Source: Curvularia clavata
Lineage: Eukaryota
DNA: 37,760 nt
Direction: 5' to 3'
Assembly (NCBI GenBank): GCA_023920165.1
Contig: CP089276.1
Coordinates: 4,712,001 to 4,749,760, forward strand
A model generated the notes under the pieces. It was not told the DNA's origin and did no database searches. It was given only the letters and a program-made list of their open reading frames with translations. Positions 1,572 to 37,760 of the stretch are shown here, one piece after another. Made by a program: the position numbers and the translations under genes. The first letter of the stretch is position 1. Every line of letters starts with the position of its first letter.

Positions 1572-1764
1572 TAACTAAGTGCGAACATTTTACTAAAGAA
1601 GAGATGCTAGTAGGACTAGAGAAGCTACGTCCTCTCTAACCTCCTAACACGTAATAGAAATTAGAGAAGCTAGAGAGGATAGAATAGAAAGTAATAAGTA
1701 TAAGAATATGTTAGATTTTATTATTATACTTATTATAGTTAACTTAGTAAAGTATCTTTCTATA

Positions 1765-3619
1765 ACGTAGTTTATAAGCGAGTCGGTCATACAAGCGAGT
1801 CGGTCACCCCTCTAGCTTTAATCACCCACCTTAACTTTACGCGCAATATCTCCACACCACGCTTCTAAATTAACTTCTCACGAAGGTGATATTCAGCTTG
1901 CCCTTTCTTCTCTAGATAGTAATTAAATCTAGAGTACCCGACGCGCTGCTATAGCCTTCAATATTCCGAAATCAACACTAATCGACCGACGCGCTAGGAG
2001 GCACGCGCGGCGCGATTGCCAGCCTAATTTAAAGAAGCTATCGCAGCTAGAAAAGTAAGTAATTGCTAGCTATATAATCGATCTCGATCTACGTAGATTT
2101 GCGCCTACCTATACTGCTATGCGAGATATAGCTAATAAGCTGCTAGCTGCGCACGACGCTAGCCAGGTTGGCGTTCACTGGCCGCGCAACTTTGTCAAGC
2201 GTACAGACAGTCTTACGACGCGTTTCAATCGAGCGTATAATAGGTAGAGAGCCCTATATAAAGATCCAGTCTTAATTAAGAGCTAGTTTAAGCTTATAGA
2301 GTAGACGAAGGCCAAGTACGGTATCTACGACAAGGACGTCTACAACTTCGACGAAGCTGGCTTTTTAATAGGCAAGATTACTATTTAGCTTATCGTTATA
2401 GTATTAGAGAGAAGAGGCCATCCAAAGGCTATCCAGCCAGGTGGTCGCGAGTAGATAACGTTTATCGCTACGATTAACGCAGCTAGCTAGTCTATCCCAC
2501 CATTTCTGATCTTTACTGGCAAGTATTACCTATCTGCCTGGTACGAGGAGGCAGAAATCCCACGCGACTGGGCGATCGCAGTGCGCAAAAACGGCTAGAC
2601 GACTAATAAGCTTAGAGTTGAGTGGCTAAAGCACTTTATTAAGTATATAGATAGTAAGATTGTTAGAGTACACTAGCTACTTATCCTTAATAGCTATGAG
2701 AGCCACTAGTCACTTAAGTTCTAAGAGCTCTATAAGGAGAACAATATCTACACGCTCTGTATGCCGCCTTACTCGTCTTACCTACTCTAGCCTCTTGACA
2801 TTGGCTGCTTCTCCCTATTAAAGCGCGCGTATAGCTATAAGGTAGAGAGTCTAATATATAACCATATCAACCACATCACTAAGCTCGAGTTTCTACCAGC
2901 GTTTAAAGCAGCATTCGATTAATCCTTCACGCTAGCCAATATCTACTCAGCTTTCCAAGGCGCAGGCCTTATTCCTCTCTAGCTAGATACTATTCTATTA
3001 AAGCTTAACGTACAGCTACGTACGCCTACTCCTCTAGCTGCTCTCGCGGAAGCTCTCTAGCAGCCCTATACGCCAAGCAACGTACGCGAGCTTAAAGCTT
3101 AATCAACGCTAATAAGTAATCGCGTTTAATAGTATAAGAGCTCTTTGCCAGCTTTAATTATTACAGTAATTAATCAGCTTAAGAAAGGCGGGTAAGTAAT
3201 AATACTATTAGCTAAGCTAATGCGCGATCAGATCACTAGTCTTTAGAAGGCTAATAAGCTAGTATTAAAGCGTAGATAGCGTAAAAGAAAGCGAATACAG
3301 AAGTAAGGAGTACTTATAAAAAGAGCTGGTGAGGATATTATCGCTTAACGCGATGCTGATGAGCAGATTGCTTATAAAGAGCGTTAGGGAGGAGAGCGAT
3401 TAGATATTAGCGGCCGGGCTCTTGCGCGCTATAGTAGATGTAAAGAGACTGGCTATAACTCGCGTATATGTAAGAAAGATACTCTAGATAGTAATTAATC
3501 TACTATCTTAATATCTATCAAAACTATCTATATATAGTGGAGCTACACGCTTGTAAAGGTGCGCAAAGTTAGTAGGGTAACCAACTCGCTTGTATGACCG
3601 ACTCGCTTATAAACTACAT
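1765..3619 (+). mobile_element. Fot1/pogo DNA transposon, copy 2 (1855 bp), RIP-inactivated
   Basis: TIRs of about 44 bp (ACGTAGTTTATAAGCGAGTCGGTC...) and TA target duplication on both sides. Same length and family as 34831-36685. Confidence 0.92.
1846..3498 (+). pseudogene. Fot1-type transposase pseudogene
   Basis: Start ATG mutated to ATA. YNFDEAGF and PLDIGCF motifs are visible among many TAG/TAA stops caused by transitions. Confidence 0.88.
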
Positions 3620-3768
3620 TAGTTCTTTTATACTTAGATTAATACTAGTTATTCTATTTTCTAATAGAATTAGTTTTTATCTATTTTTACTATTTCCTAC
3701 TACTAAATTGCTAGACAACTACCTTACAGTATACTTTATAGAAACTAGTTTTACTCTAATCTAGAATC

Positions 3769-4039
3769 TGTAACCATGCATAGACCAAAACATACCCCAG
3801 CCAGGGCAGCTTATCAAGATCCGATTGAGAGCCGGGTCAGACCCGATGAAGACCCGCACCCAGGTATAAGTACCAGGTACCTTCCATAGATGTTCGGTAG
3901 ATTTTTGATATCCTTTCGTACCAGGCCTATGAGTGTCTACCGAATCCAAGGTGTTTCTGCTGTCCCACGCACTTCCATATGCATTTGAGTGACACTTCCC
4001 ACCGGAACCGATTCGACTAGTCTTGCTCGCGCCGTTACA
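3769..4039 (+). repeat. 5' LTR of element A
   Basis: TGTAAC...GTTACA, a direct repeat of 10694-10964, with TATA-like TATAAG near 3865. Confidence 0.97.
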
Positions 4040-4041
4040 TT

Positions 4042-4054
4042 ATATCAAAAATCT
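4042..4054 (+). other. Putative self-priming primer-binding site of element A
   Basis: ATATCAAAAATCT is the exact reverse complement of AGATTTTTGATAT (3899-3911) inside the LTR. No TGG-starting tRNA-type PBS is present. Confidence 0.75.
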
Positions 4055-4334
4055 CGTCCCAGCCGGTGACGGCCTTCAAAACAATATCGCAGCTTGTTTG
4101 TTGAGACCGCGCCCAAGCCCAAGTCCCTCCGGAACCGCTCCGGATACTTCACACCGTTACGTCCCACATTCACACACAGGCGGGATCCCTTCGATCTCCC
4201 GCCGACCGAAGCCTTTGGGTTTGGACCTCCTGTACTGATTGCAGTCAGGTTAACTTCGGAGAAGTCGCGTAGATTGCGCCAAGGTAGAGACTCGGAGACT
4301 ACCAAAAACCCATCAGCCACGAAGACAACCGTCG

Positions 4335-5525
4335 ATGGCTGACCGAACCCCATCCGGCTCAGGAGAGCTTTCCAGGAAGTCGCCGCGCTTCCAAGATTCG
4401 AAGTCAAGAGAGAAGACGCCTGGCAAACCGCCAGCCGTCGAAGAGGAAGAGGATTCGGAAGAGGATGAGACTAGCCTCCTTCGGGCAGAGATCGACAGGC
4501 TAAACGAACAAATCGCACGGCTGTCCCGCCAAAACACCGCAGCCCCAGATCAACCTCTCCCCTCCACCGAATCACCACCGACTATCGCTGAACCAACCGA
4601 AACTCAATTCGGAAGGTACCAGTCAGCAACCCCGGACCTGCTACGTGTCAAACTCACAGAACGTACCCCTTCCATTGATAACCTTAGTGATGGAACAGAA
4701 CCTACGTTCCGCCAATGGCAAGCGTCAATAGAGGACCGCTTAACAATCAACGCGGACCATTATCGGAGTGAACGCGCACGCATGGCTCTAGTCTGGGGAC
4801 ATACTACAGGTATCGCCAAGGGATACCTGGAACCACAGTACCTAGCCGATTCGGTGGAGGACCGGTTCCAAAACGCCGAAGATATGATAGCTACTCTAAA
4901 ATCATACTTCGTATCCGGCAACGAGCAAGCGGAAAGCCGCGCTGCTTTCCACCGCTTGCTCATGGACAAAAAGGAAACCTTCGCTGAATTTAAGGCAAAA
5001 TTTATAAGTGCTGCCGTCAAAGGATCCGTATCGAAGTCGGAGTGGTTTTTCTACTTATGGGAAAAAATTACCCCCGCCTTGCGTGTTCCAAACTTGGGAT
5101 TTAAACACCAGTGGAACAACTCCTTTGACAAGATGATACAACACCTTACTGCCTTCGATACCGAAAGAAGGAACACTCCTTTCGGACACGGTTCGGAACC
5201 CACTTCCAATAATTCTCGTACTCCACCAACGAAGCCCCGCGTCAGTCAATACCGGGACTACCGCCCAAACACTTATGGAGTCCGATCCGAACCAGCTCCG
5301 ACCCAATCTCGCGCTCATTCTAATACCCCCAGGTTCCCTTCAAAGACCCCCGCACTGGATAGCAAACCGACTACTAGCAATTGCTATAACTGCGGAAAAC
5401 CTGGACATTATGCGAATGAGTGCCCCATTCCTCGGGTTCGAGAAATCGAAGCAGAGAAGGAAGAATTCGAAGAAGCACACGAATACTTATCGGAGGAGGA
5501 CCGGGCGGGAAACCACCAGGCCTAG
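4335..5525 (+). CDS. gag: Gag of element A (396 aa)
   Basis: Retrotransposon gag-like helical core and C-terminal zinc knuckle CYNCGKPGHYANEC. Confidence 0.95.
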   Translation: MADRTPSGSGELSRKSPRFQDSKSREKTPGKPPAVEEEEDSEEDETSLLRAEIDRLNEQIARLSRQNTAAPDQPLPSTESPPTIAEPTETQFGRYQSATPDLLRVKLTERTPSIDNLSDGTEPTFRQWQASIEDRLTINADHYRSERARMALVWGHTTGIAKGYLEPQYLADSVEDRFQNAEDMIATLKSYFVSGNEQAESRAAFHRLLMDKKETFAEFKAKFISAAVKGSVSKSEWFFYLWEKITPALRVPNLGFKHQWNNSFDKMIQHLTAFDTERRNTPFGHGSEPTSNNSRTPPTKPRVSQYRDYRPNTYGVRSEPAPTQSRAHSNTPRFPSKTPALDSKPTTSNCYNCGKPGHYANECPIPRVREIEAEKEEFEEAHEYLSEEDRAGNHQA

Positions 5526-8500
5526 GAAAACTCTCCGCCCTAGGCATGAACAAGTACGATCTAGCTAAAATTGATTTATCCCACTTGTTCGGAGGAAAAC
5601 ACTTCCTAGTACCCACCGTTCTTTGTTCGAAAGGGTTTGGTGTCAGCTTGCACTCCTTAGTTGACACTGGAGCCCAAGGCTTTTTATTCTTAAATTCTGC
5701 TATTGCTCGTACCCTCTCCGGCTCCCTTCAGGTCCCCATCCGAAGACTTCCCTTCAAGATCACAGTCAAAGGATTTCAGGACCAAGTCCAAACTAGGGTA
5801 GACAAATATATTCGGTTACATATCCGAATCGATGGAAGAAAGATTTACAACTGTCCCTTCGTGATCATGGATCTAGGGACACAGGACTGCATAATTGGAA
5901 TCAAGTGGTTAAGACGTTTCCAGCTTAGGCTTGATACGAGCCGGAACCGGATCGTATGGCCGGCCAAGTACCCTCCAACATATGATCCCGCGCCACCTAT
6001 CCTTGTACAGTTGAAACAACCTTCCATCGATGCTGATGTGGAACGGGACATACAGAGGCGAGACGCACTATGGGAAAAGGACAACTACCGTAGGCAAAAC
6101 AGTCCTCGCAAAGCTCTCATGCGAAGAATTAGAGGATGCCTCAAACTTCCCAAGGTTCGTCTACCACTACCTGTTCCCGACCCTACTCCGGACCCTATCC
6201 GACCAACATCTTCACCCCGTATCGCCATCATTTCGGCAAATGCTTTCCATTATTCTATGAAGCGTAAGGAAAACGAGTTCTTCACGACAAGTATCTATGA
6301 GATCGATCGCATCTTAGAAGAGCGCATGAAGCCAGACGATCCCGAAAACGCCAAACTTGTTCGGGACCGACTTCCATCCGCTTACCATTCGTACCGCGAT
6401 GTCTTCAGCAAGACAGCGGCAGAGCTACTGCCCGAACATCGCCCATACGATCATAAGATTGTGCTGACCGAACCTCTTCCGAATCAATTCAGTCCTCTGT
6501 ACAAGCAGAGCACTGAAGAACTCGAAGCCACCAAGACGTTCGTAATGGAAAACCTTAGGAAAGGACACATTGACCCAAGCCACTGCCCCTTCGCCTCCCC
6601 AGTCCTTTGTGTTCGGAAGCCAAACGGAGACATTCGCATCTGTGTAGATTACCGCCGACTCAACGCAATCACCAGAAAGGATGCGTATCCGATACCACGC
6701 ATTGACGAGCTTCTAGCCCGCACCCACAAGGCGAAAATCTTCACCAAGCTCGACATACGTGCGGCATTCAACAAGATCCGAATGCACCCCGACTCGGAGG
6801 AGTACACCACGTTCCGCACTAGATACGGAACCTACAAGTCCAAAGTGTTGCCTTTTGGATTATGCAACGGCCCTGCAACATATCAACGCTACATGAATGA
6901 TGTGTTGATTGATTATCTAGACAGCTTCTGCATAGTCTACCTAGACGACATTTTGATCTACTCCGAATCGGAACCGGACCACCCCCGCCACGTACAACAG
7001 GTCTTGGAAAGGCTTAGGCAAGCCGGTCTCCAAGTTGACATCAAGAAAAGCGAATTCCATGTCACTCGGACCAAATACCTAGGGTACATTTTGACCAACC
7101 AAGGTCTAGAGGTGGACCCTGACAAGGTGGAAGCCCTTCAAGATTGGGTCCGACCTACCACCGTTACTGGTGTGAAGTCGTTCCTAGGGTTCACTGGGTT
7201 CTACAGGCAGTTCGTTCCTGAATACTCGCGAATTGCGAAACCTCTCCTCGCCCTCCAGAGCCCCTCAAGACCATTCGTATGGGATTCGGAGTGCGACCAA
7301 GCCTTTGAAAGGTTAAAATCTGCACTGCTGGCAATTCCCACCTTGTACCACTACCATCCAGAGTATGATACCAAGGTGGAGACCGACGCGTCCGATGGCG
7401 TTGTGGCAGGCGTTCTTTCCCAAAAGCAGCCAAATGGAAATTGGTGTCCTGTAGCATTCTTCAGCAAGGTCCTATCCGGGTCTGAGCTGAACTGGGAAAT
7501 ACACGACAAAGAACTATTCGCCATCGTAACGGCGTTTAGCAAGTGGCGACCTGAACTGCTGTCGGTACGCTCTCGTGTCGACGTGTACTCAGACCACCGT
7601 TCCCTTGAATACTTCATGACTACCAAAGTTCTGAATGCCCGCCAGGTGCGATGGGCGGAAGAGTTGGCATCCTTCAATTTCCACATCCGATACACCCCCG
7701 GAAAGGATAATGCTCGTGCTGACATCCTCTCCCGACGGGAGCAAGATGTGGGGAATCTGAAGACAGCCCAAATTGACAACCGTTCGCGGGTCCTCCTGGG
7801 ACCGCACCGACTTGACAACCGAATCAACTCCGAACTTGCTAAGACCTATGTAGCCCAACTCCAAGCGGAATCTTTCTCCTTACTTGTAGTTGAGCCCATA
7901 TCGGAGCCGATGTCCCTCGATTCGCTGGAGCTGATCGAGTCTATCCTACAAGAGAACCGAGCCTCGTTTGGGGCAGAGCGAAGGTCCCTTCCGGACAGAT
8001 ACCGGATCGAAAACGGACTCCTGCTCTATTCCAACCGCCTATGCATTCCTTCCACCTCTACCCTTGTGACTCGCCTCATTCGGGAAGTACACGACCAGGT
8101 ATCCTCAGCGCACCCCAGTGCAAAGAAGACCTACCAACTACTGTCCCAGAAGTACCACTGGAAGGGTATGGAATCCACCTGTAAAAGGTATGTGCGGAAT
8201 TGCATAGCCTGTAGGAAGGCCCATCCTAGACAGACCCGAATTCCAGGGATGATTCATCCTTTGCCAATTCCTGACCGGCCGATGCAGCACCTGTGCATCG
8301 ACTTTAAGGAATTTCCCCGAGACCGATCCGGTTACGACATGATCATGGTCGTGATCGACCGGTTATCTAAGCAGGCCATCTCCATCCCCTGCCACAAGAC
8401 TATTGATGCAAGGGGAATGGCCGACCTATTCGTTCAATGGGTGTACCGATTTGGCCACACACCTGAAACCATAGTCTCTGACCGAGGACCACAGTTCATT

Positions 8501-9442
8501 TCAAGCTTCTGGTCGGAATTCTGCCGAATCCTAGGCGTTAAGGTCAAGCTGTCAACCGCCTACCACAAAGAAACGGATGGTCAGACAGAGATTATGAATA
8601 AGTACATCGATCAGAGGTTGCGCCCATTCGTATCCTACTACCAAGACAACTGGAGTGGACTTCTACCTTTGATCGATCGTGCTCAAATTTCCCTACCACA
8701 TTCTTCCATTGGCATGTCCCCGTACCACATCCTATATGGTTCCGAACCCCGGCAGAGTTGGGACTGGAAACATTCCACCAGCCTTCTCACCCCCACTGAC
8801 AAACTCAACCATAAGGATGCATTGGAAATGGCTACCCGCATGCACGACGCATGGAAGGTAGCTAAGGAACAAATGGAGAAAGCCCAGGACAGGATGCGAA
8901 CCACAGTCAACCGCCATCGTCGTTCTGTTGACTGGGATGTGGGAGACATGGTCTTCCTAAGTACCCGGAACCTCGCGTCAGACCGTCCGAGTAGGAAGCT
9001 ATCCTCCAAATGGGAGGGACCCTTCAGGGTACTTGAGAAGGTAGGACATTCATACCGCTTGGACCTTCCGAAAAGGTCCCGGATCCATGATGTCTTCGCC
9101 CCGGATCTATTATGCAAAGATCCTCAAGACCCCCTCCCAGGACAAGAACCTCCAAAGCCCCCAGCAACTCCCATCCAAGGCGTGGAAGAATGGGAGGTAG
9201 AAGAAATCCTAGCAAGCAAGTTGTACCGCTCAAACCTAAAATACCAAGTACGGTGGGTCGGACATGACCCGGATCCTACCTGGTACCCAGCCTCAAACTT
9301 CATGGGAGCCCCACACAAGCTCAAACTCTTCCATGAACAACATCCCACCAAACCGGGACCCCCACGTTCCCTTGGCAAGTGGATCACGGCATGGGAACAA
9401 GGCACAGAGGATATGACTTCACTGCAGGATGACAAAATTTAA
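5420..9442 (+). CDS. pol: Pol of element A: protease, RT, RNase H, integrase, chromodomain; probably entered by frameshift near 5510
   Basis: DTGA protease, YLDDILI RT, ETDAS RNase H, HHCC and SDRGPQF integrase, and EEWEVEEIL...YQVRWVG chromodomain, in gypsy order. Confidence 0.97.
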   Translation: MPHSSGSRNRSREGRIRRSTRILIGGGPGGKPPGLGKLSALGMNKYDLAKIDLSHLFGGKHFLVPTVLCSKGFGVSLHSLVDTGAQGFLFLNSAIARTLSGSLQVPIRRLPFKITVKGFQDQVQTRVDKYIRLHIRIDGRKIYNCPFVIMDLGTQDCIIGIKWLRRFQLRLDTSRNRIVWPAKYPPTYDPAPPILVQLKQPSIDADVERDIQRRDALWEKDNYRRQNSPRKALMRRIRGCLKLPKVRLPLPVPDPTPDPIRPTSSPRIAIISANAFHYSMKRKENEFFTTSIYEIDRILEERMKPDDPENAKLVRDRLPSAYHSYRDVFSKTAAELLPEHRPYDHKIVLTEPLPNQFSPLYKQSTEELEATKTFVMENLRKGHIDPSHCPFASPVLCVRKPNGDIRICVDYRRLNAITRKDAYPIPRIDELLARTHKAKIFTKLDIRAAFNKIRMHPDSEEYTTFRTRYGTYKSKVLPFGLCNGPATYQRYMNDVLIDYLDSFCIVYLDDILIYSESEPDHPRHVQQVLERLRQAGLQVDIKKSEFHVTRTKYLGYILTNQGLEVDPDKVEALQDWVRPTTVTGVKSFLGFTGFYRQFVPEYSRIAKPLLALQSPSRPFVWDSECDQAFERLKSALLAIPTLYHYHPEYDTKVETDASDGVVAGVLSQKQPNGNWCPVAFFSKVLSGSELNWEIHDKELFAIVTAFSKWRPELLSVRSRVDVYSDHRSLEYFMTTKVLNARQVRWAEELASFNFHIRYTPGKDNARADILSRREQDVGNLKTAQIDNRSRVLLGPHRLDNRINSELAKTYVAQLQAESFSLLVVEPISEPMSLDSLELIESILQENRASFGAERRSLPDRYRIENGLLLYSNRLCIPSTSTLVTRLIREVHDQVSSAHPSAKKTYQLLSQKYHWKGMESTCKRYVRNCIACRKAHPRQTRIPGMIHPLPIPDRPMQHLCIDFKEFPRDRSGYDMIMVVIDRLSKQAISIPCHKTIDARGMADLFVQWVYRFGHTPETIVSDRGPQFISSFWSEFCRILGVKVKLSTAYHKETDGQTEIMNKYIDQRLRPFVSYYQDNWSGLLPLIDRAQISLPHSSIGMSPYHILYGSEPRQSWDWKHSTSLLTPTDKLNHKDALEMATRMHDAWKVAKEQMEKAQDRMRTTVNRHRRSVDWDVGDMVFLSTRNLASDRPSRKLSSKWEGPFRVLEKVGHSYRLDLPKRSRIHDVFAPDLLCKDPQDPLPGQEPPKPPATPIQGVEEWEVEEILASKLYRSNLKYQVRWVGHDPDPTWYPASNFMGAPHKLKLFHEQHPTKPGPPRSLGKWITAWEQGTEDMTSLQDDKI
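5507..5550 (+). other. -1 ribosomal frameshift signal of element A
   Basis: Slippery heptamer G GGA AAC (5507-5513) in the gag frame, followed by the stem GCCTAGG...CCTAGGC. Pol is in the -1 frame. Confidence 0.8.
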
Positions 9443-9540
9443 AGAAAAGGAAAAACAGAAACTTCATTGGGTATCAGTAACAAAGGAAACTCGGACCCGA
9501 ACCCCACAACCACCAACAAACCCCCAAAATGTCACCTCAC

Positions 9541-10208
9541 TCAAAGTTCAACATCAGAGCGCTCCTGCTCAGCGTCGGCCATCTCCTGGTCAACCGCACC
9601 CTTGTCCTCCTCTGAGGAGGAGGACAAACCAGACCATTCCTCCGACTCCTCGACCCGAGGGCCGACCCGGGCGCCACCCCGAGCCGACCTGGCCTCAAGA
9701 CGCGAAAGGCGCCTTTCCATGCCATTGACTGTATCGACCAACTCCGAGATGCTGTCTCGGATGTCCCTCAGGACCTGGTTCTGGGCGACGAGGAGCTGAT
9801 TGACTGAAAGCTCCTTCTCCTGGGACCTGACAACTTGGACCTTGCGGGCGATGTCCAAAGCGGCGGCAGCGATTCGATCAAGCAATACCTCCGTATCGGC
9901 ATCAACTGCAGGGCCATACCAAGCGATGGCACACAACTCGATGGCATCGATCAAATCGTGAAACTCCTCGAAGACGTACTCGGGAACCTATCCGGGTTAG
10001 CCAAGCTGCAAACAGTGAAGGAAAAGAGAAGCAAACTTACAGGATCGCACTTCTCCTTCTGCTGGGTGCAATAAAGACACTTCTTGGAGGAATCGGACGG
10101 GTAGGCGTAAGCAATGTCGAACTGACGGCGCGCCAAGGCGCGGACAGCTCGCAGACAGATGAAGCGATACGCATCCGGCAGCGCACCGGGCGGACAACGA
10201 AGAGGCAT
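9541..10208 (-). CDS. Antisense accessory gene of element A; two exons (10208-10041 and 9987-9541), about 204 aa; Cys cluster, coiled coil and acidic tail
   Basis: A 53-bp phase-0 intron (10040-9988) with GTAAGT donor, GCTAAC branch site and TAG acceptor joins ...KKCLYCTQQKEKCDP to VPEYVFEEFHDLIDAIEL... in frame. Confidence 0.8.
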
Positions 10209-10693
10209 AGCGAAAACGAGTGCGTTGAGTTGTAATTGACTTGTTTTGATTGAGAAGCGTGGAGGAGAAAACTCGGCGGCGACACTGTGTTGTTGTTGAT
10301 ATACACACTGGGGGAGCAAACAGTCTTGGCACACGTGACCTGGATAGCCGTTGGACCCTGACTACAAACGAATCGCCGGCGACTCGGAGCTCCGATCGAA
10401 GCGTCCAGGCCTGTCTGGCAGGTGAAGGCAAACGGCCTAGCGGCCAGGCAGCAAGGCAGCAGCGCCACGTGAGTACCGGAATGGTCACTGAGGCTCAGGC
10501 ACAGAGGCTCAAGTGAAGGACATGCACGGCCACGGGAGCCACACCGGAACCGGAGCATCCTATTGCCCGAAGTGGCGCAGTGTGGGGAAAATCTGGGGGA
10601 AATCAGGAACGAGGGACCCCATGGTGCAGGGAAGAAGAATGACAACCGGAACAGACAGCTGTGGGACCAGCTGTCTACCGGGAGGGGGGGTAA

Positions 10694-10964
10694 TGTAACC
10701 ATGCATAGACCAAAACATACCCCAGCCAGGGCAGCTTATCAAGATCCGATTGAGAGCCGGGTCAGACCCGATGAAGACCCGCACCCAGGTATAAGTACCA
10801 GGTACCTTCCATAGATGTTCGGTAGATTTTTGATATCCTTTCGTACCAGGCCTATGAGTGTCTACCGAATCCAAGGTGTTTCTGCTGTCCCACGCACTTC
10901 CATATGCATTTGAGTGACACTTCCCACCGGAACCGATTCGACTAGTCTTGCTCGCGCCGTTACA
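10694..10964 (+). repeat. 3' LTR of element A
   Basis: Reads identical to 3769-4039. Confidence 0.97.
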
Positions 10965-11895
10965 GAATCTAGACTAGATAAGTATATTCCTACTAACGTA
11001 GGACCCTATATAATATTTTAACTACCTATAGATTTAGTAAGCAGTTTAATAGCAAGTATCTAATTAAAATATTACTATATTACGCAACTTTAATAAGTAT
11101 ATTAATGTCTAGAGACCGGCTCCCGTATAAGATATTAATATGGCCAGTAGTATCTAGGGAGTGGGCAACGAACACGCCCTAAGGACTTCTGAGTAGGAAC
11201 TTGCTAATTTTAGATATAAGCACTAGACTTAGGTATAGCAGATAATTAAAATATGGAATATAGTTAATTAGCTTATAAATTAGCTAATAGCTATGCTAAA
11301 TAAAAAGATTATTAAAAAATCTAAGATAGCAACTTCTAAGAAATATAGCAGAAATTATAATAATCTATAAATATTCTTTACTACTATTAACCTATACTAC
11401 GAATTTAATAAAGTATTTAGTAATTAAAAGAAGATTTTTATAGCTAGTATATATATAAAAAGAAAAGCGGCTAATAAGATCTAACTATATATAGAAGACT
11501 ATCTATTATTAGTAAAGACTAAAGAGACTAGAGATAAGAATAAAGCCCTATTTGCAGATTAGAATAGCTTTAAGGAAGAGATAGAATATATCTTTAGAGA
11601 AATCAATACTAGAAACTAAGTAGAAAAAGCGATTATACGCCTAAAGCAGACTATATCTATTTTAGTTTATATAGCTGAGTTCAAGTAGCTATAAGCGCGA
11701 ATTAATTAGAATAACGCAGCTCTTCGAATGGTATTCGAAGACGGTCTAAAGGAAATTGTTAAAGACGGTCTAGTATACTATAATAAGCTAGAAATATTGC
11801 AAACTCTAATTAAGCTAGCTACGCGAATTAATAATAGAATTTAGGAACGAAATAAATAAAAGAAATGTTAATTCTATCCTAATATAGCTAATACT

Positions 11896-12489: not shown

Positions 12490-12880
12490 TAGACTGGTAA
12501 ACGGGTATTGACCCACTTTTCTTCTTTCATCAATGTCTCATCAAAGACTAGTCCAAATCGAGTAATTCTGACGTCATTTTAATGCCCTAAGCTAGCGCAT
12601 TCTATCATGTAATATAAAGCTAAGCCGTATCTAGCTTAGTTCAAAAGTTATTTAATAGCCCGTTTGTGAGCCCTAGGGCTGGGTTATGAGTCGGGTATAC
12701 CCCTATTTTTACTCCTTTTTTAGCTCTAGCACTAGTACTATCAGTGTTAAGCTAAAATAATATATTAGTAATATTTAGACTAGAGTGCTAGCTCTCTAAT
12801 GACGTCAGAATTACTTGATTTGGACTAGTATTGGCCAAGATAATCGATAGCCCTAGCTAAATACCCGATTTACCAGTCTA
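12490..12880. mobile_element. Non-autonomous hAT-type element/MITE (391 bp)
   Basis: TIR TAGACTGGTAAA(T)CGGGTATT, 8-bp TSD TAGAAAAC, and an inner inverted repeat of about 32 bp (ACTAGTCCAAATCGAGTAATTCTGACGTCATT). Confidence 0.88.
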
Positions 12881-13384: not shown

Positions 13385-13891
13385 TGTTACACGGGGTCCT
13401 ACTGGTTAGTTGGGAATATACTTACCTAGCCTAGATTCCGGGTTAGGGCGAGGCCAGTTTCTATGAAGTATACCGTGAGGTAGTTGTCTGGCGATTCGGT
13501 GGTAGGGATTAACGGAAGATAGACAAAACCAATCCTATTGGAAGATAGAATAACTAGTATCAATCTGAGTATGAAAGGTAACTATGAAAGATACTTTGCT
13601 GAGTTGACCACAACGAGTGTAATAATGAAATCCAACACATTCTTATACCCATTGCTTCCGGTCCTGTCCTCACTGTCCTCACGGAATAACCCCTGTGTTC
13701 TCTGAAGTCCCTGAAGTCACTTTGGTCACGTGTGAGCGTGTCCTCACATACTAGCGTGGTTTCCCGGTCTTGGCCTGAGGCCAGTCATGTGATCGCCCTT
13801 CCGCGGGGATCATTACCTTCTGACGTGTCGCCCAATGGTCTCCTACCTGCGGCCATCGTCAAGGAGAGATCCTTCTTTGTTACTTGTAACA
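13385..13891 (-). repeat. 3' LTR of element B
   Basis: Direct repeat of 20296-20802. Confidence 0.97.
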
Positions 13892-16800
13892 TTATCCCCC
13901 CTCTTAGGGTTATCGTCCCGATACCCTGGATTATCGTTTTCCCGTGCGTCGCTTGGCGCTGGTGGCTTGGATAAGTATCGAGGTATGCCCGTTGTGTCGT
14001 AGGCGCTTCTTCCTCCATGCCTTCCTAACCATGCCCAAGGTTCAACCAACTCGTCGTGTCCGTAACCAGAATTCGACTCTTCAGCGTCGGGCCCGCGCTG
14101 ACCGTATAAGGGAACAAGGCCGCGAGATGACTTTTCGGTGTAAACGTTGTGAAGAGAAGAATCTTCGTTGTTTCGTGGACACAGCATCTGGTCGCTGCGC
14201 TGGTTGTATTTCGGTTTCCGCTGAGTGTAGCCTTTTTGTTTCTGAGGAAGAGTGGGAGAAGGTCGAGGCTGAGAAGCGGCAAAAGCGTCTCGAGATTGCT
14301 CGTGCTGAGGAGCGCCAGCTTCAGGCTGCGATGGAGACTGCGCGACTTCGGCGCGAGCTCCTAGAGGTTGAGGCGCGAGAGCGAGAATTTGCTGATCGAG
14401 ATCATGCCATCTTGAGCCTTCAGGATCGTGCGCAAGAGCAGGCCGAGGGGAGCTCCGCCCCTGGTACGGACCATCCGACAACCGAACCATCGCTACCCGG
14501 ACTGTCGACTGACTTGGGCTGGTTACAGGCTGACGTTTCTTACGACCCTTTTTCACTTGATTATTTCCTTTCCCTCGAGGGTCCGTCCCTCGCTTCCGTG
14601 GATGTTTCCGATGGTACTCGCGTACCAGTGACCTGCAGTTCGTCAAGTTTCCTTCAGGTTCCCAAGTGTTGTGGCTATCTGGCCATCCTTCCCACCTGAC
14701 CAAGTACTTCCACTGACCGCCTATTTTCTGTAGGTCCTTGATTTCTTCGACCGTATATTCGTCGTCCTCGAGCTCGATATCGTCCATTAGCTCGGCTTCT
14801 GGGGGTGCAGGTTCTAGCAGTTTCTTGTGAAAAACGTTGTGTATGCGCATGCCTGGTGGTAGCCGTAGTTTATAGTTTACGGGTCCCATTTTCTCTAGGA
14901 TTTCGAATGGTCCTAATCGGAGATTGTCCAATTTCTTGCTTGGTCGTTTAGTTTTCAAGTTTTGTCGTGACAAGAAAACTCTGTCCCCCTTTTTAAAGGT
15001 TGGTCCCTCAATCCTTAGCTTATTCGCAGCTTTGGACGTCGTGAGGTTCCTATGAGCGATGTTCCTGCTCAATTCTTTATGCAATTCGCGCATTAGTCGG
15101 GCTTTATCGTCTGCTCCGACTGCGATACTTTCAATATCCTTTGGATCTCGATGAGCAACCGGCTCATATCCGTAGTTCGCGTAGTGTGGCGAGTACTTCG
15201 TTGTCGCCGATCTTGAACTATTGTAAGCCAATTGTGCTGTCGGCAAGAGTTCAACCCAGTTGTCCTGCAGCTTGTTGGCGTAAAATCGCAGATACTGTTC
15301 TAGCGTTTGGTTTGTTCGTTCCGTTTGTCCGTCGGTTTCTGGGTGGAAGCTAGTCGATAGCTTCTTCTTAACTCCCAGTTTTGCTAAGAACGTTGACCAG
15401 TATTTCGATGTGAACAGCTTATCTCTGTCCGTTATGAATTCTTCGGGCATCCCGTGCTCTGATATTAGTGCTTTGGAAACTTCGTACGCGCATTCCTCTG
15501 CCGTAATTGTTTCTTCTGTGGGCACAAACTTTGCCCCTTTGGTCTGTCGACACATTATGACCAAAATGGTGTCGCAGAGTCGAGCCGATCCTGGCTCTAA
15601 CGATTTCGGGAGCTTCACTATGAAGTCCATCGTTACGCTGCTCCATGGTCGCGTTGGTGGCGGTAAGGGTTGTAACAGGCCATAGGGCTTATGTCTTTTG
15701 GGCTTGTTCTGGTGACATGCCACACAGTTGCCTACAACTTCCTGCACCTGCGCCCTCAAGCGCGGCATATAAAACGCCTTATTCAGTCGCCTGACCATTT
15801 CGTCGATGCTTGCATGTCCGTATTCTCGTGACTCATGCAGTTCTTTGATGAGATCTTTTCTCATGTGCGTGGGTACGTAGGGTCGACTCTCGTTCCGCGG
15901 CTCACCTTTGTTCTGTAGCCCGTTGAGTTCCTTTTGTCCGTCCAATGGTACCCATTCATTCGCTTTTTGTTGCCATTGCTGTTGCAACGTTTCCACTTGC
16001 TCGGCTATCTTGGCTAATCTAGCCAGATCCGGCTGGTTGTACCTCAAGCTGCCGTCGGGCATTCTCTTGAGTACTGCGTCGTGTGGCTCTTTGTGGCCTT
16101 TTCCGCGTAAATCGGATCTTCGGCTCAGAGCATCCGCGGCTCCGTTGAGCGATCCTGCTCGATGCGTGATTTTGAAGTCAAACTGAGCTAACATCTCAGC
16201 ATATCGGACTTGTCTTCGGTTGAGTTTCTTCGTTGTCATAAAACTCGTGAGGTTCTGATGATCGGTAAAAACCTCGATCGTGTGTGGAAGTCCTAACAGG
16301 TATACTTCCCATTGTTCAAAGGCATCGACTACTCCAAGTAGTTCCTTATCGTGAACATCGTAGTTCAACTCTGCTTCGTCGAACTTTCTGGAATGGTAGA
16401 ACACGGGTCTCCATTTCCCATCTGGGCACTGCTGTGACAATACAGCTCCGAGTGCGTAATCAGACGCGTCAGTCTCGAGTCTGGTTGGTCGTTGAGGATC
16501 GTACATCTCTAGTACGGGTGCCTCTAGGAACGTCTGCTTGAGCTTGTCGAAAGCTTTCTGTTGTTCCTGTTTCCATCTGAAACCTACTTCCTTCTTCGTG
16601 ATCTCCGTAAGGGGTGCTGTGATCTTCGAATAATCTTTTATGAACTTCCGGTAGTAGTTCGCTAGCCCTAGGAAGGACTGAACATCCTTAACTGTTTTGG
16701 GCGTTTTCCAATCCCGTACAGCCTGTACCTTTTTTGGGTTCATTTTCACTCCTTCGGTCGAGATGATGAATCCGAGGAATTCCGTTTCCTGCGTGTGGAA

Positions 16801-18354
16801 TTCGCATTTCCCTGGCTGCAGATATAGCTTGTATTCCTTGAGCTTTCTGAGCACTTTCTTGACATGTTCGATGTGTTCTTCGAGCGTTCCCTTGGAGTAC
16901 ACTAGTACATCGTCCAAGTAAGCTGTTGCGAAGACACCAAGGTATTCGTGGAGAGCGTTGTTGATGACTGATTGAAAGGTCGCCGGCGCATTCGTTAGGC
17001 CGAACGGCATGACCGTATACTCGAACAGTCCATACTTCGTCTTGAACGCTGTTTTCCATTCGTCTCCTTCCTTGATCCTGATCCGATAAAATCCTTCTCG
17101 GACATCGAACTTCGTGAACCACTTGGCTCCCTGGAGTCGATCCATGAGCTCTGTTATGAGTGGTAGTGGGTACCGATTCTTTCGGGTTACCGCGTTCAAC
17201 CTTCGGTAATCGACACATAGTCGCCATTTTCCGTTAGGTTTCTTTACGAACAATATGGGTGAGGCCATCGGGCCTGACCCCGGTCTGATGAATCCTTTCT
17301 TAAGATTCTTCCGGAGGTATTCCTTGAGCTCGGCGTCGTGCTCGGGCGATATAGGATACATGCCTCCTGGCGTCAACTTTGCTCCATCCTCGAGGATGAT
17401 CTCGTGATCCCAATCCTGATGTTCTGCTAAGTCTGTTGCCTCGTTTTCTTCGAATAGTTCCTTGAACTCATTCGTTCTGTATTCTTTAGGAATGTCCAAC
17501 AATACGTCTTTGGGCTTTTCCTGGGGTAAGGGTCTGTCCTTCTTGGGCACGACTCGTCTTAACCAAATGACTCCTACTTGCTGAGGGTCCTTCGCATAGA
17601 TTCTCGCGATCTTATGCGGTGAGATCTTGCCGAATCTCCCATCCCGGGTTGTGCACTGATTCGTCGGGCGTATCTCATGTCGTACTCCAGCAACCCTTTT
17701 CGCAGGTTCTCGGCTGAGTATCGTTCTGTTTCGCCAGTCGATGGCGGGGTTATGGGCATCCAGCCAGTCATAACCGATCAATAGATCCGTTTCTCCTAGA
17801 TCCATAATGCTAATGCTCATTTGACTCTTGGTATCGGACACCTCCAGTGTCACCAGTTCTGTCTCGAGCCTTATCGTGCCTTTGCCGTATGCTACGGGCG
17901 TTTCTTCGGCCGATATTACCTGTAGCGGACGCTTCTTGCTCCGGTATGGTATTTCGTACTTCTCTACCACTCGGGGTGAGATCATTGTTCGTGCGGCACC
18001 GCTGTCTACGATTGCCTGTAATTTGTGTCCCTGTACATACACGGTCGTTACCAATTCCTTTGGGCGATCATCGGTGTAATGTACTCGTCTTAGGGTCGTT
18101 TTAGGACTGCCTTTACCAGCGTGACCCTGTCCCTGGTGGCATCCTAGTTTTTTGACGGTCCCCTGGACCCAAGCTTCTTTCCCTTTCTTTTCCGCGGAAA
18201 GTAGCCATGGTTCTGTTTTGCGTCCAGGTGGATTCTGCAGTTGTCGTCTGTGCAGAAGGTCCAGTGTTCGTTTGGGTGGGGGATCATTTCTTCCAGCGTC
18301 TCTGGCAGGTTGATCTCCTTTGTCCCGTGCATCCTGCACTTGATCGTCCGGCAT
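13843..18354 (-). CDS. pol: Pol of element B (protease, RT, RNase H, integrase, chromodomain) with a long C-terminal extension ending inside the LTR; probably entered by frameshift near 18150
   Basis: DSGA, YLDDVLV, ETDAS, HHCC, TDRD and EYTVEEI...YLVRWEGW..HNTWEP motifs. Confidence 0.97.
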   Translation of the reverse strand: MPDDQVQDARDKGDQPARDAGRNDPPPKRTLDLLHRRQLQNPPGRKTEPWLLSAEKKGKEAWVQGTVKKLGCHQGQGHAGKGSPKTTLRRVHYTDDRPKELVTTVYVQGHKLQAIVDSGAARTMISPRVVEKYEIPYRSKKRPLQVISAEETPVAYGKGTIRLETELVTLEVSDTKSQMSISIMDLGETDLLIGYDWLDAHNPAIDWRNRTILSREPAKRVAGVRHEIRPTNQCTTRDGRFGKISPHKIARIYAKDPQQVGVIWLRRVVPKKDRPLPQEKPKDVLLDIPKEYRTNEFKELFEENEATDLAEHQDWDHEIILEDGAKLTPGGMYPISPEHDAELKEYLRKNLKKGFIRPGSGPMASPILFVKKPNGKWRLCVDYRRLNAVTRKNRYPLPLITELMDRLQGAKWFTKFDVREGFYRIRIKEGDEWKTAFKTKYGLFEYTVMPFGLTNAPATFQSVINNALHEYLGVFATAYLDDVLVYSKGTLEEHIEHVKKVLRKLKEYKLYLQPGKCEFHTQETEFLGFIISTEGVKMNPKKVQAVRDWKTPKTVKDVQSFLGLANYYRKFIKDYSKITAPLTEITKKEVGFRWKQEQQKAFDKLKQTFLEAPVLEMYDPQRPTRLETDASDYALGAVLSQQCPDGKWRPVFYHSRKFDEAELNYDVHDKELLGVVDAFEQWEVYLLGLPHTIEVFTDHQNLTSFMTTKKLNRRQVRYAEMLAQFDFKITHRAGSLNGAADALSRRSDLRGKGHKEPHDAVLKRMPDGSLRYNQPDLARLAKIAEQVETLQQQWQQKANEWVPLDGQKELNGLQNKGEPRNESRPYVPTHMRKDLIKELHESREYGHASIDEMVRRLNKAFYMPRLRAQVQEVVGNCVACHQNKPKRHKPYGLLQPLPPPTRPWSSVTMDFIVKLPKSLEPGSARLCDTILVIMCRQTKGAKFVPTEETITAEECAYEVSKALISEHGMPEEFITDRDKLFTSKYWSTFLAKLGVKKKLSTSFHPETDGQTERTNQTLEQYLRFYANKLQDNWVELLPTAQLAYNSSRSATTKYSPHYANYGYEPVAHRDPKDIESIAVGADDKARLMRELHKELSRNIAHRNLTTSKAANKLRIEGPTFKKGDRVFLSRQNLKTKRPSKKLDNLRLGPFEILEKMGPVNYKLRLPPGMRIHNVFHKKLLEPAPPEAELMDDIELEDDEYTVEEIKDLQKIGGQWKYLVRWEGWPDSHNTWEPEGNLTNCRSLVREYHRKHPRKRGTDPRGKGNNQVKKGRKKRQPVTSPSQSTVRVAMVRLSDGPYQGRSSPRPALAHDPEGSRWHDLDQQILALAPQPLGARAEVAQSPSQPEAGAPQHEQSRDAFAASQPRPSPTLPQKQKGYTQRKPKYNQRSDQMLCPRNNEDSSLHNVYTEKSSRGLVPLYGQRGPDAEESNSGYGHDELVEPWAWLGRHGGRSAYDTTGIPRYLSKPPAPSDARENDNPGYRDDNPKRGDNVTSNKEGSLLDDGRR
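14031..14699 (+). CDS. Antisense accessory gene of element B (222 aa): Zn(II)2Cys6-pattern domain, coiled coil and acidic/hydrophobic tail
   Basis: ACCATG start. CKRC-EEKNLR-C-FVDTASGR-CAGC-ISVSAE-C matches C-x2-C-x6-C-x8-C-x2-C-x6-C and is followed by an E/R/K-rich helix. Confidence 0.85.
   Translation: MPKVQPTRRVRNQNSTLQRRARADRIREQGREMTFRCKRCEEKNLRCFVDTASGRCAGCISVSAECSLFVSEEEWEKVEAEKRQKRLEIARAEERQLQAAMETARLRRELLEVEAREREFADRDHAILSLQDRAQEQAEGSSAPGTDHPTTEPSLPGLSTDLGWLQADVSYDPFSLDYFLSLEGPSLASVDVSDGTRVPVTCSSSSFLQVPKCCGYLAILPT
18104..18153 (-). other. -1 frameshift signal of element B
   Basis: Slippery A AAA AAC directly before the gag TAG, then TGCC-ACCAG...CTGGT-aaa-GGCA with loop GGAC able to pair with downstream GTCC (possible pseudoknot). 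Confidence 0.78.
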
Positions 18355-20234
18355 TCCTTAGCCGCGATCGTGCCGTGCAGATGGTGATCTGCATGTCTTG
18401 CCGCGATTCTCTGTTCTCGGTGGAATCGGCATTTCTCTATGCAGTTGATCCAGCAGAGCTGCTCGTGAGCTCGTTGATGTTCTTCCTTGTGGATGTGGCA
18501 ATCCAGCATGGGGCAGTCGTTTGCCCATAGATGCTTGTGATTAGGATCATGCTCGTCCAACTTGCATTGTTCTTTAGCATCTGAGTGGAACATACAAAAC
18601 CTCCTTTTGCATTCGTTCCAGGCGATCATTTCGTGATCGTCGTGTTGCTTCCATGGTGCGTGGATGGTGCAATCCAATACCTTGCATGCTTCACTTCTTA
18701 AGTGTGCGTGGCAACATTCTTCTGCGTCGTACTGGGACAGTCTCGATTCTTCGGCATGGAACTCGCAGTAGTCTATACTGTCGCATTCGATCCAGTGCAG
18801 CTTTCTATGTTCGTCTTCGCGGTCGTTTTCTGGTTCCGGTAGCTCGTCCTTAAAGTACGGTTGTTCCTGGGCTGCCTGGGCAAGTACTTCCCTGGCCATC
18901 GGCCCTGTGACTGCAATTCTTCTTCCTCGAAGTGGGCAGCCATTGCCGTGGTGTGCTGGGTCTCCGCACATCCAGCATAAGTTTTGTGCGATCCGACGCT
19001 GGGCATCTGTGTCCTTCACGATCCAGTCGGATGGCTGTGGTGGTTCCCATTTCATGTGTTTGTCCGCTCTGACGAGCTCCGGGACAATCACATAATCCGT
19101 GTTCTCAGCTAGACGTGCTTCGTCGTAGAGGTCTAGATCGCTGAGGTCGTCGTCGGAGGGTAGTGTAGATGGCTGTGACTTCAGCATCCTGATCTTTACT
19201 ACTGCCTGCTTGACTTCGTTCTTCGGGCAGTCTCTGCGGAAGTGTCCTACTTCGCCGCATCGGAGACATGCTTTGTTGTCATAACGCTTCTGGCGTTCTT
19301 CCTTGGAAAGGCCGTCCTGGCCCTTTCCTCGGGGTTTCTTGTCTCTGGTCTTTTCTTGTACTTTTCCCGTCATGATTGTATCGCCGTCCTTGTCTCGGTT
19401 GTTGCGTTGTTTCTTGGTGTTAGCCATGTTGGGTCGAAATTGCCGTTTCTTTTGTTCGTTTCGTTCCCAGATCCTATTGTCGATTCGCGTGGCCAGCTCA
19501 ATCAGAGCTTGTAACGTTTCTGGCTTATCATGGTGTACTAGACCGTCTTTGACAATTTCCTTCAGACCGTCTTCGAATACCGTTCGAAGAGCTGCGTCGT
19601 CCCAATCAATTCGCGCTTGTAGCTGCTTAAACTCAGCTGTGTAAGCCGAAACGGACGTGGTCTGCTTCAGGCGTGTGATCGCTTTCTCTGCTTGGTTCTT
19701 GGCGTCGACCTCTCCGAAGACACGTCCCATTTCATCCTTGAAGTTGTTCCAACTTGCGAATAGGGCCTTGGTTTCTTCCTTGGTCCCTTTGGTCTTTATT
19801 GACGATAGGTAGTCCTCCACATATGGTTGGACCCAGTTAGCCGCTTTTCCTTTCATATGCGTACTGGCCATGAGGATCTTTTCCTGATCACTAGGTACCT
19901 CGTTGAATTCGCAGTATAGGTCGATGGTGGTGAGGAACGTTCGTAGGTCGTTACGGTTTCCGTCATACTTTTCGGGAGTTGCCATCTTAGGTTTCTTGAC
20001 AACCTTTTCGTTTGGCGTAGCCATCAGCTGACTCATAAGCTGATTAACCATATTCTGCATTTCGATCATCTGCTGTGCCTGAGCCTGGTGCTCGCGTCTG
20101 AGATTGGCAAGTTCCCACTCAGGAGTCCCTGGGGCATGCTCGTTGCCCACTCCCTGGGTGCTTCCGGCCATGTTGATGTCCTGTGCGGGAGCCGGTCCCT
20201 GGACGTTGACATACTCGTTGGAGTTGCGTGACAT
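18144..20234 (-). CDS. gag: Gag of element B (696 aa) with two CCHC knuckles and seven His/Cys repeats
   Basis: PEKYDG...LKQTTSVSAYTAEF core, CLRCGEVGHFRRDC and CWMCGDPAHHGNGC. Confidence 0.95.
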   Translation of the reverse strand: MSRNSNEYVNVQGPAPAQDINMAGSTQGVGNEHAPGTPEWELANLRREHQAQAQQMIEMQNMVNQLMSQLMATPNEKVVKKPKMATPEKYDGNRNDLRTFLTTIDLYCEFNEVPSDQEKILMASTHMKGKAANWVQPYVEDYLSSIKTKGTKEETKALFASWNNFKDEMGRVFGEVDAKNQAEKAITRLKQTTSVSAYTAEFKQLQARIDWDDAALRTVFEDGLKEIVKDGLVHHDKPETLQALIELATRIDNRIWERNEQKKRQFRPNMANTKKQRNNRDKDGDTIMTGKVQEKTRDKKPRGKGQDGLSKEERQKRYDNKACLRCGEVGHFRRDCPKNEVKQAVVKIRMLKSQPSTLPSDDDLSDLDLYDEARLAENTDYVIVPELVRADKHMKWEPPQPSDWIVKDTDAQRRIAQNLCWMCGDPAHHGNGCPLRGRRIAVTGPMAREVLAQAAQEQPYFKDELPEPENDREDEHRKLHWIECDSIDYCEFHAEESRLSQYDAEECCHAHLRSEACKVLDCTIHAPWKQHDDHEMIAWNECKRRFCMFHSDAKEQCKLDEHDPNHKHLWANDCPMLDCHIHKEEHQRAHEQLCWINCIEKCRFHREQRIAARHADHHLHGTIAAKECRTIKCRMHGTKEINLPETLEEMIPHPNEHWTFCTDDNCRIHLDAKQNHGYFPRKRKGKKLGSRGPSKN

Positions 20235-20295
20235 GGTGATATCTCAATCGGACGCTTGGTGTTAAACCGCTTACCGAATCCGTGGGTGGTCAAAG

Positions 20296-20802
20296 TGTTA
20301 CACGGGGTCCTACTGGTTAGTTGGGAATATACTTACCTAGCCTAGATTCCGGGTTAGGGCGAGGCCAGTTTCTATGAAGTATACCGTGAGGTAGTTGTCT
20401 GGCGATTCGGTGGTAGGGATTAACGGAAGATAGACAAAACCAATCCTATTGGAAGATAGAATAACTAGTATCAATCTGAGTATGAAAGGTAACTATGAAA
20501 GATACTTTGCTGAGTTGACCACAACGAGTGTAATAATGAAATCCAACACATTCTTATACCCATTGCTTCCGGTCCTGTCCTCACTGTCCTCACGGAATAA
20601 CCCCTGTGTTCTCTGAAGTCCCTGAAGTCACTTTGGTCACGTGTGAGCGTGTCCTCACATACTAGCGTGGTTTCCCGGTCTTGGCCTGAGGCCAGTCATG
20701 TGATCGCCCTTCCGCGGGGATCATTACCTTCTGACGTGTCGCCCAATGGTCTCCTACCTGCGGCCATCGTCAAGGAGAGATCCTTCTTTGTTACTTGTAA
20801 CA
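20296..20802 (-). repeat. 5' LTR of element B
   Basis: Direct repeat of 13385-13891, with TATAAG on the minus strand near 20553-20558. Confidence 0.97.
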
Positions 20803-24891: not shown

Positions 24892-25034
24892 GCGAGCGTA
24901 ATCGCGATTTACAGCTTCCAGCTCTGCAGTCGTGAATCTGTTGGCATTATCCAATTGTTCATGCCTGTCACACTTTGTTCTTTCCTTAATCAACTAAGAC
25001 ATTCGCATCTTCAGCAATCAGTCGACCATTAGCA

Positions 25035-34760: not shown

Positions 34761-34830
34761 ATACTAAGACTTTAGACTAAGCTTTAATACGTAGATATCT
34801 ATAACTACTAGCTAAGATAAGAAGTCGCTA

Positions 34831-36685: not shown

Positions 36686-36933
36686 TAGTAGATAAATTAA
36701 TATTACTTAGTTATACTTAATTATTAGAAATAATAGCAGACAAACTTACTAAAGCTCTGTTAGTAAACTTATAGTAGCGATTTCTAAATTAACTAAGACT
36801 AAAAGAGAGTAGGACTTAAAAAGTAACCTAAGAAGTAGCTCTACTCGAAATCTAGAATTAAATTAATCGTCTAGCGATCTAACTAACTAATAGTTTAGCT
36901 TATAATTCTAATTAGCTTTAAGCTAAAAAGGTG

Positions 36934-37432: not shown

Positions 37433-37584
37433 TAGACTGGTAAACGGGTATTGACCCACTTTTCTTCTTTCATCAATATCTCATCAAAGACTAGTCCAAA
37501 TCGAGTAATTCTGACGTCATTTTAATGCCCTAAGCTAGCGCATTCTATCATGTAATATAAAGCTAAGCCGTATCTAGCTTAGTT
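37433..37584. mobile_element. Left 152 bp of the hAT MITE, truncated by the telomere
   Basis: Matches 12490-12641 with one G>A difference. Confidence 0.95.
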
Positions 37585-37703
37585 AGGGTAGGGTTAGGGT
37601 TAGGGTTAGGGTTAGGGTTAGGGTTAGGGTTAGGGTTAGGGTTAGGGTTAGGGTTAGGGTTAGGGTTAGGGTTAGGGTTAGGGTTAGGGTTAGGGTTAGG
37701 GTT
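37583..37703 (+). repeat. Telomere, about 20 TTAGGG repeats
   Basis: Direct tandem array; the second unit is TAGGG. Confidence 0.98.
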
Positions 37704-37760
37704 AGGTGCTGTCACACGAGTATGGAAGTCGTTCTTTAACCTTAGCAATACGTAACTGAA
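37704..37760. other. Sequencing artefact: Oxford Nanopore native barcode (probably NB13) plus adapter
   Basis: AGGTGCTG + 24-nt TCACACGAGTATGGAAGTCGTTCT + TTAACCTT + AGCAATACGTAACTGAA matches my recollection of the native-barcode flanks and ligation adapter. Confidence 0.92.

Follow-up and report, generated by a model that had tools for sequence, protein, structure and literature searches.

The 37,760-nucleotide stretch of Curvularia clavata DNA analysed here (hereafter the window) contains an intact long terminal repeat (LTR) retrotransposon, element A, which almost certainly carries a real spliced gene antisense to gag and pol. That this gene is expressed separately from the element's own genes is supported, at the level of sequence, by a conserved intron position, by purifying selection and by a conserved layout in its relatives. 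The general layout is already known from brtn of Botrytis and from the antisense ORFs (aORFs) of plants; what is new is the intact copy, a variant of the encoded cysteine motif with four cysteines, and the presence of a similar gene in another element of the window. The product may be an element-encoded nuclear regulator acting on the element's own DNA or chromatin, a reading to which we assign a probability of about 50%.

Element A occupies positions 3769–10964 on the plus strand; its two 271-bp LTRs are identical, GAATC is duplicated at the target site, and both gag and pol are open (Table 1). Its LTRs, gag, PR-RT-RH-IN order and C-terminal chromodomain are those of a Ty3/gypsy chromovirus, the chromodomain scoring 24 bits on the Chromo profile against a cut-off of 25.1 (E 3.7e-5). 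A search with its pol found no described element among the best 120 matches, and Rfam gave no match over positions 3700–11100. The antisense gene starts with an ATG at 10208 on the minus strand, and its coding frame lies antisense to gag-pol between pol and the 3' LTR, the position that characterizes an aORF-3R. Its two exons join to encode 204 aa plus a stop; the unspliced frame hits a stop after 85 codons. An identical 204-aa protein from Curvularia clavata, labelled "uncharacterized" in its source, was found in the protein collections (P0001), and represents a gene prediction rather than proof of expression. The preliminary description of this DNA had proposed a 53-bp intron (GTAAGT...GCTAAC...TAG) joining two ORF fragments in frame, a model that proved exact, and some 480 bp between ATG and LTR with a TATA-like motif near 10300, where we measure 485 bp and place the TATAT at about 10303–10299. 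The intron pattern occurs once in element A, at the antisense gene, and not at all in the second element (element B, below), both strands being scanned in each. Across the intron stretch, no splice donor motif was found on the genomic (sense) strand, so that reverse transcription would copy the intron. The preliminary description had further held that an intron survives reverse transcription only if the genomic RNA stays unspliced, which antisense orientation ensures. This orientation does suffice, but to make it a requirement would be too strong: an intron in sense orientation also persists where the genomic RNA is left unspliced, and sense splicing has been described for Bagy2 and retroviral env (PMC7264820).

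Table 1. Features of element A and of its antisense gene, in window coordinates.
Feature	Position	Strand	Description
5' LTR	3769–4039 (271 bp, TG...CA)	plus	GAATC directly before
gag	4335–5525	plus	CCHC zinc knuckle
pol	5420–9442, -1 frame	plus	protease, RT, RNase H, integrase, chromodomain
Spacer	9443–9540 (98 bp)	none	between converging stops of pol and antisense gene
Exon 2	9987–9541 (447 nt, 148 codons + stop)	minus	helical hairpin, long heptad helix, acidic tail
Predicted long helix, residues 118–159	9679–9804	minus	heptad repeat 122–153, likely coiled coil
Intron	10040–9988 (53 nt, phase 0)	minus	GTAAGT...GCTAAC (10001–9996)...TAG, directly after C-x-P codons
Exon 1	10208–10041 (168 nt, 56 codons)	minus	putative zinc-binding domain; most conserved part of family
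Cysteine motif C18...C44-x2-C47-x6-C54	10047–10157	minus	A21 and Y34 at positions of cysteines 2 and 3
Putative internal antisense promoter	10209–10693 (485 bp)	minus	TATAT at -95, then CT-rich tract
Polypurine tract	10680–10690	plus	sequence
3' LTR	10694–10964	plus	identical to 5' LTR; GAATC directly after

The 1251-nt region holding the antisense gene has 24 matches in the same genome, nine of which (window copy included) are intact, and the gene is open in all nine of these young copies. The sole difference of the eight others within the region lies at 9921, where the window copy encodes W79 and the others R79; sequencing run X1 carries the majority base at this site. The 3' flanks differ among the intact copies, two of which form a tandem pair. 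The element A family has multiplied recently, with every young copy keeping the intron. Thirteen further copies show RIP-type changes that hit the intron donor; of the remaining matches, one (L024) does not cover the donor and another (L014) was left out, having aligned to the neighbouring L004 copy. The preliminary description had taken the intact splice signals as an argument for a real gene, and the gene is indeed supported, via distant relatives; the signals by themselves prove little, because the eight other intact copies differ from the window copy at one base. Splice-site conservation among the genome's own copies was likewise discarded as evidence, being uninformative when nine copies are near-identical, and therefore silent on selection, and thirteen are damaged at the donor. 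The same genome also harbours a RIP-damaged sister family (L055–L057) with an LTR 77–78% like that of element A, an antisense gene at the same place and, within it, a 52–53-nt intron remnant at the same position.

A search over 1.84 billion proteins returned 55 matches to the antisense gene product, including a mutated copy (P0002) and one match that looks spurious (P0034). The junction after C-x-P could be classed in 46 of 56 sequences: 19 are joined, 20 run on into sequence starting with V, six read through a V-starting in-frame insert and then rejoin, and one is of another kind. In a scan of metagenomes, six loci were confirmed among 443 candidates (L058–L063). The preliminary description had made the gene depend on splice sites being conserved in the family, and a GT-AG intron of 45–54 nt does lie at the same codon in all six loci. 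The intron cores match that of the window at merely 17–23 of 44–45 bases, and the exon 1 proteins share 44–64% identity with the window gene. Pol was found on the opposite strand, tail-to-tail with the antisense gene, in five of the six, the sixth contig being too short. Comparison of exon 1 between the window gene and the six relatives gave pN values of 0.21–0.40 and pS values of 0.69–0.79, the distant pairs being saturated and chosen by protein likeness; L060 and L061, a pair from the branch that retains all six cysteines, differ by a dN of 0.004 and a dS of 0.144 over 120 codons. These values indicate that relatives of the antisense gene are under purifying selection, with the clean pair belonging to the six-cysteine branch. 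Overlapping frames on the sense strand are not kept open in the relatives. All six loci also have one or two intron donor motifs within the 160 nt before the ATG, in most cases with a branch-like site and an AG downstream, and no such upstream motif precedes the ATG in the window's own family. The distance from polypurine tract to ATG is 368–398 bp in four of the six. L059 and L063, and likewise L003/L004, are arranged head-to-tail with one shared LTR (pol, antisense gene, LTR, gag), as in tandem arrays or one-LTR circles. An ESM Atlas search returned unnamed Ascomycota clusters, at 0.88–0.90.

Expression was assessed from assembled contigs. No spliced joint of the window copy was found in the contigs of four runs (X1–X4), which are unstranded and drop rare forms, so that a spliced form could have been missed, and whose RNA origin is only guessed for three of the four. 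In X1, X2 and X4 there are contigs that run through the unspliced intron, as expected of DNA or genomic RNA, and X3 has no intron coverage. Among the relatives, the joined forms P0004, P0006, P0014, P0042 and P0066 stem from Logan or ENA assemblies, and the read-through forms P0007, P0009 and P0019 also come from sources of this type. One cluster at 90% identity unites the joined P0066 (ENA assembly) with P0067 and P0068, which start exactly at exon 2; this mixture fits spliced RNA of a four-cysteine relative, and could also stem from intron-less DNA copies.

The protein encoded by exon 1 is built around a family motif of C-x2-C-x11/12-C-x9-C-x2-C-x6-C. Among filled alignment rows, cysteine 1 is kept in 49 of 52, cysteine 4 in 50 of 52, cysteine 5 in 50 of 50 and cysteine 6 in 49 of 50. 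Cysteines 2 and 3 could be parsed in 45 of 56 sequences, with both present in 18, neither in 21 and one in 6, a count in which P0047 was mis-parsed, as it has both. A tree of 48 rows, constructed with the columns of cysteines 2 and 3 masked, fell into a group of 23 rows, of which 21 have neither cysteine, and one of 25 rows, of which 21 have both; the support for the split was 94/85, from few columns and with an unsettled bootstrap. Names were looked up for 30 of the 55 matches, and the four-cysteine branch included Curvularia, Bipolaris, Clathrospora, Polyplosphaeria, Plenodomus, Zopfia and Didymella, the six-cysteine branch Stipitochalara, Diplocarpon, Cadophora and Pseudogymnoascus; we take these genera to represent Pleosporales and Leotiomycetes, respectively. 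The preliminary description had read CLRA...Y for the first half of the cluster and CLYC-x6-C for the second, letters with which we agree, and had left open a variant or a degenerate metal site, to be settled by seeing whether A21 and Y34 are Cys elsewhere. They are Cys in the six-cysteine branch and not in the four-cysteine branch, which as a whole lacks cysteines 2 and 3 and keeps 1, 4, 5 and 6, so that the site is a variant and the notion of degeneration falls away. Judged from the alignment and tree, A21 and Y34 represent a stable variant in which cysteines 2 and 3 were lost about once. A Fisher test for their joint loss (p 6.6e-7) was rejected, as the sequences are non-independent and the tree holds about one event.

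Two of the six cysteines of Gal4 bridge two metals (PMC7614390). In the family of the window gene, conserved basic residues accompany the cysteines (R20 in 48 of 53, R23 in 43 of 53 and K43 in 50 of 52). In Gal4 the first and fourth cysteines do the bridging, and one complete site consists of cysteines 1, 4, 5 and 6; its DNA-reading loop sits between cysteines 2 and 3, and this is the stretch altered in the window protein, which speaks against a regulator that reads DNA. By analogy with this bridging pattern, we infer that cysteines 1, 4, 5 and 6 of the window protein would be the ligands of one zinc.

The fold was predicted for the full-length window protein and for exon 1 of a six-cysteine relative. 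The full-length model (pLDDT 81.9) has helices at residues 11–14, 19–26 and 45–50, a hairpin at 59–113, a helix at 118–159 and a disordered tail; 14 of the last 44 residues are acidic. The six-cysteine exon 1 model (pLDDT 77.6) has the same three helices as the window protein, and when compared to 48,161 chains gave Z values of at least 2 only for Gal4 (Z 3.0, rmsd 3.8, 40 aligned), Pho7 (Z 2.4, rmsd 5.9, 40 aligned) and Leu3 (Z 2.2, rmsd 2.2, 37 aligned), all three being Zn2Cys6 proteins. Using Foldseek, 10 of 11 rows for this model were Leu3, Pho7, Put3 or Ppr1, with no E value below 1.4. These matches to a Gal4-like fold are selective yet weak; they were obtained with a six-cysteine relative instead of the window protein, and could stem from cysteine patterns that the predictor had memorised. 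For the full-length model, Foldseek had no match at E 0.001, and what VIA-align found were just helical hairpins of a generic kind; a sequence search of solved structures gave nothing below E 0.97, and a homodimer prediction scored 0.03, no evidence for or against.

At the sequence level, Pfam Zn_clus (PF00172) matched none of 49 family members at E 0.1 and none of six further members at E 1, and the DUF3716 profile matched none of the 49 at E 0.1. The PF00172 pattern C-x2-C-x6-C-x5-12-C-x2-C-x6-8-C is absent from the window protein, which has four of its six cysteines. Profile–profile comparison of the family with host Zn2Cys6 motifs gave probabilities of 6–13%. On a profile of 28 host Zn2Cys6 motifs, the window exon 1 scored 13.9 bits, a value reached by 2 of 500 cysteine-fixed shuffles, and two six-cysteine members scored no better than shuffles (255/500 and 61/500). 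A strong basic cluster after residue 60 is absent from the window protein (3 K/R in 8, compared with 5 in 5 of 14 relatives). The six-cysteine branch resembles Zn(II)2Cys6 proteins in its two C-x2-C halves, in a last half of C-x2-C-x6-C and in a helix after cysteines 1 and 4, and the window protein in the coiled coil and acidic tail that follow the cysteine domain, an order as in Gal4-type activators. In contrast, the family has 11–12 residues between cysteines 2 and 3 rather than 6, and the window protein lacks both these cysteines, is just 204 aa long, has no middle homology region and does not match the Pfam profile of the cluster. The window protein is thus not a member of PF00172, although it may work like one. 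The six-cysteine relatives P0055, P0070 and P0071 are labelled "Zn(2)-C6 fungal-type domain-containing protein" in UniRef even though Pfam does not match them, and are probably retrotransposon genes annotated as host genes.

The second intact chromovirus of the window, element B (13385–20802, minus strand), has identical 507-bp LTRs and a pol 36% identical to that of element A. Its gag of 699 aa ends in several His/Cys-rich repeats that resemble the WCCH repeats of Pyret. Between pol and the 3' LTR it carries an intron-less antisense ORF (14031–14699, plus strand, 222 aa), found in 17 identical copies and overlapping a 250-aa C-terminal extension of pol. The ORF encodes C-x2-C-x6-C-x8-C-x2-C-x6-C, the exact Gal4 spacing, as well as an acidic tail and a helical stretch rich in charged residues. 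It had no match to Pfam Zn_clus, scored 17.2 bits on the host Zn2Cys6 profile (reached by 2 of 500 shuffles) and matched unnamed Ascomycota clusters in the Atlas at 0.94–0.96. Profile comparison of the element A gene family with this ORF gave a probability of 1%, and hence no clear homology. The window additionally encodes a host transcription factor of the ordinary Zn2Cys6 kind, without introns and with a Fungal_trans_2 domain (24990–26942, plus strand), which was used as a positive control. Elsewhere in the window, two inverted copies, 83% alike, of a 1.86-kb element with terminal inverted repeats lie at 1763–3621 and 34828–36689, a telomeric TTAGGG array at 37574–37706 is followed by about 50 other bases at the contig end, and positions 37433–37584 match 12490–12641 at 99%.

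Plant elements, and the Boty element of Botrytis and Sclerotinia, have been described as carrying antisense ORFs between pol and the 3' LTR (PMC7264820). The Boty gene, brtn (2011, Virology 417:248), is cited in PMC7264820, PMC8365987 and PMC4227169. Boty and element A are alike in being Ty3/gypsy elements of fungi that have a chromodomain and harbour an additional antisense gene after pol and before the 3' LTR. No Botrytis or Sclerotinia names occurred among the 30 of 55 protein matches looked up. Brtn is said to have three exons, reportedly shown by RT-PCR, whereas the window gene has two coding exons, the two genes being compared by description. With the plant aORFs, the window gene shares position, orientation and presence in all intact copies, and some of the plant products have coiled coils (PMD-CC), a feature of plant aORFs also noted in PMC4408406. 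The plant products contain PMD, transposase-28 or SMC-like domains, in contrast to the cysteine motif and Zn2Cys6-like predicted fold of the window protein, and the window gene further differs from the plant aORFs in an intron conserved across its family. An own promoter and a nuclear product are features of the plant system's gene23, the protein GENE23 being nuclear (PMC7264820). PMC9409477 and PMC2133132 contain nothing further on the topic. In the literature available outside subscription papers, neither this family nor any retrotransposon gene resembling Zn2Cys6 was found described.

Under the regulator reading, the antisense gene is an accessory gene of the retrotransposon that would have its internal promoter between LTR and ATG, and its transcript would be spliced to give the 204-aa protein. 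The N-terminal domain would descend from a Gal4-type Zn2Cys6 cluster, from which the four-cysteine branch would have lost cysteines 2 and 3, leaving four that would hold one zinc; the nuclear product would bind the element's own DNA or chromatin, and raise or protect its transcription. Two candidate binding sites were rejected: TCCGA/TCGGA was counted 30 times in the non-coding parts against 10.6 in shuffles, but pol holds it just as often (5.5 against 5.0 per kb), and a CGG-N4-CCG palindrome at -186 recurs in merely one of six relatives. We tentatively extend the regulator reading to fungal chromoviruses of at least two distant lineages, which might encode an antisense Gal4-derived regulator of transcription, a fungal counterpart of the retroviral Tat, Tax or HBZ; one branch might have trimmed the two-zinc cluster to a Cys4 finger with one zinc, the lost cysteines being precisely the two that serve the first zinc alone.

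Instead of reading DNA, the same protein could be a factor that binds other proteins and is stabilised by zinc. It could then act against silencing (heterochromatin, RNAi or RIP) or, in the manner of retroviral accessory proteins, help with nuclear import or the assembly of particles. Accessory-protein roles of this kind have been proposed in a review (PMC7264820). The loss of cysteines 2 and 3 and a spacing that is not that of Gal4 are consistent with such a factor, as are the helical hairpin and coiled coil that make up most of the protein, and the nine RIP-free copies that stand beside many mutated ones. However, young copies escape RIP between sexual cycles, and the RIP-free state is expected of them anyway; the basic residues R20, R23 and K43 are strongly kept and the fold matches are to DNA-binding domains, which makes a purely protein-binding role somewhat unlikely, if a serious contender. 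A fragment of a host transcription factor, captured and now decaying in this lineage, would account for the weak likeness to host Zn2Cys6 motifs and for the two of six cysteines that are missing as marks of decay. The four-cysteine form, however, comprises 21 rows of one branch, spans several named genera and keeps its other four cysteines; of the 52 matches within the same genome, those that are full-length and open belong to copies of the element, and the three distant loci extracted lie in a sister retroelement, so that a decaying capture appears quite improbable.

The RNA rather than the protein might matter, pairing with genomic RNA and limiting copy number, with the protein secondary. 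Along its whole length such a transcript would be complementary to genomic RNA, and a role of dsRNA is discussed in PMC7264820, but the strong amino-acid constraint seen in the dN and dS of the six-cysteine pair and in the pN and pS of exon 1 makes RNA action as the main function very improbable; an RNA effect may exist alongside the protein. Even a chance ORF with chance splice signals in the 3' untranslated region of the element could be imagined, given that no contig holds the window copy spliced. In Markov simulations of the 1251-nt region, however, the intron pattern appeared in 90 of 5000 and a spliced ORF of at least 200 aa in only 2 of 5000, and the 55 protein matches and the shared intron site in six of six loci likewise speak against chance; because of this conservation the explanation is already refuted, and we give it next to no credence.

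What additional antisense genes do in LTR retrotransposons has yet to be settled (PMC7264820), and the antisense gene of element A, intact, in a young family and with a specific structural hypothesis attached, lends itself to a direct test. Genome annotations also take up such genes as "hypothetical" or "Zn(2)-C6" proteins of the host. If the gene does encode a regulator of its own element, fungal chromoviruses would rank as "complex" elements able to govern their expression in the face of RIP and RNAi, and zinc-finger biology would gain a novelty in a natural derivative of the Zn2Cys6 cluster with one zinc.
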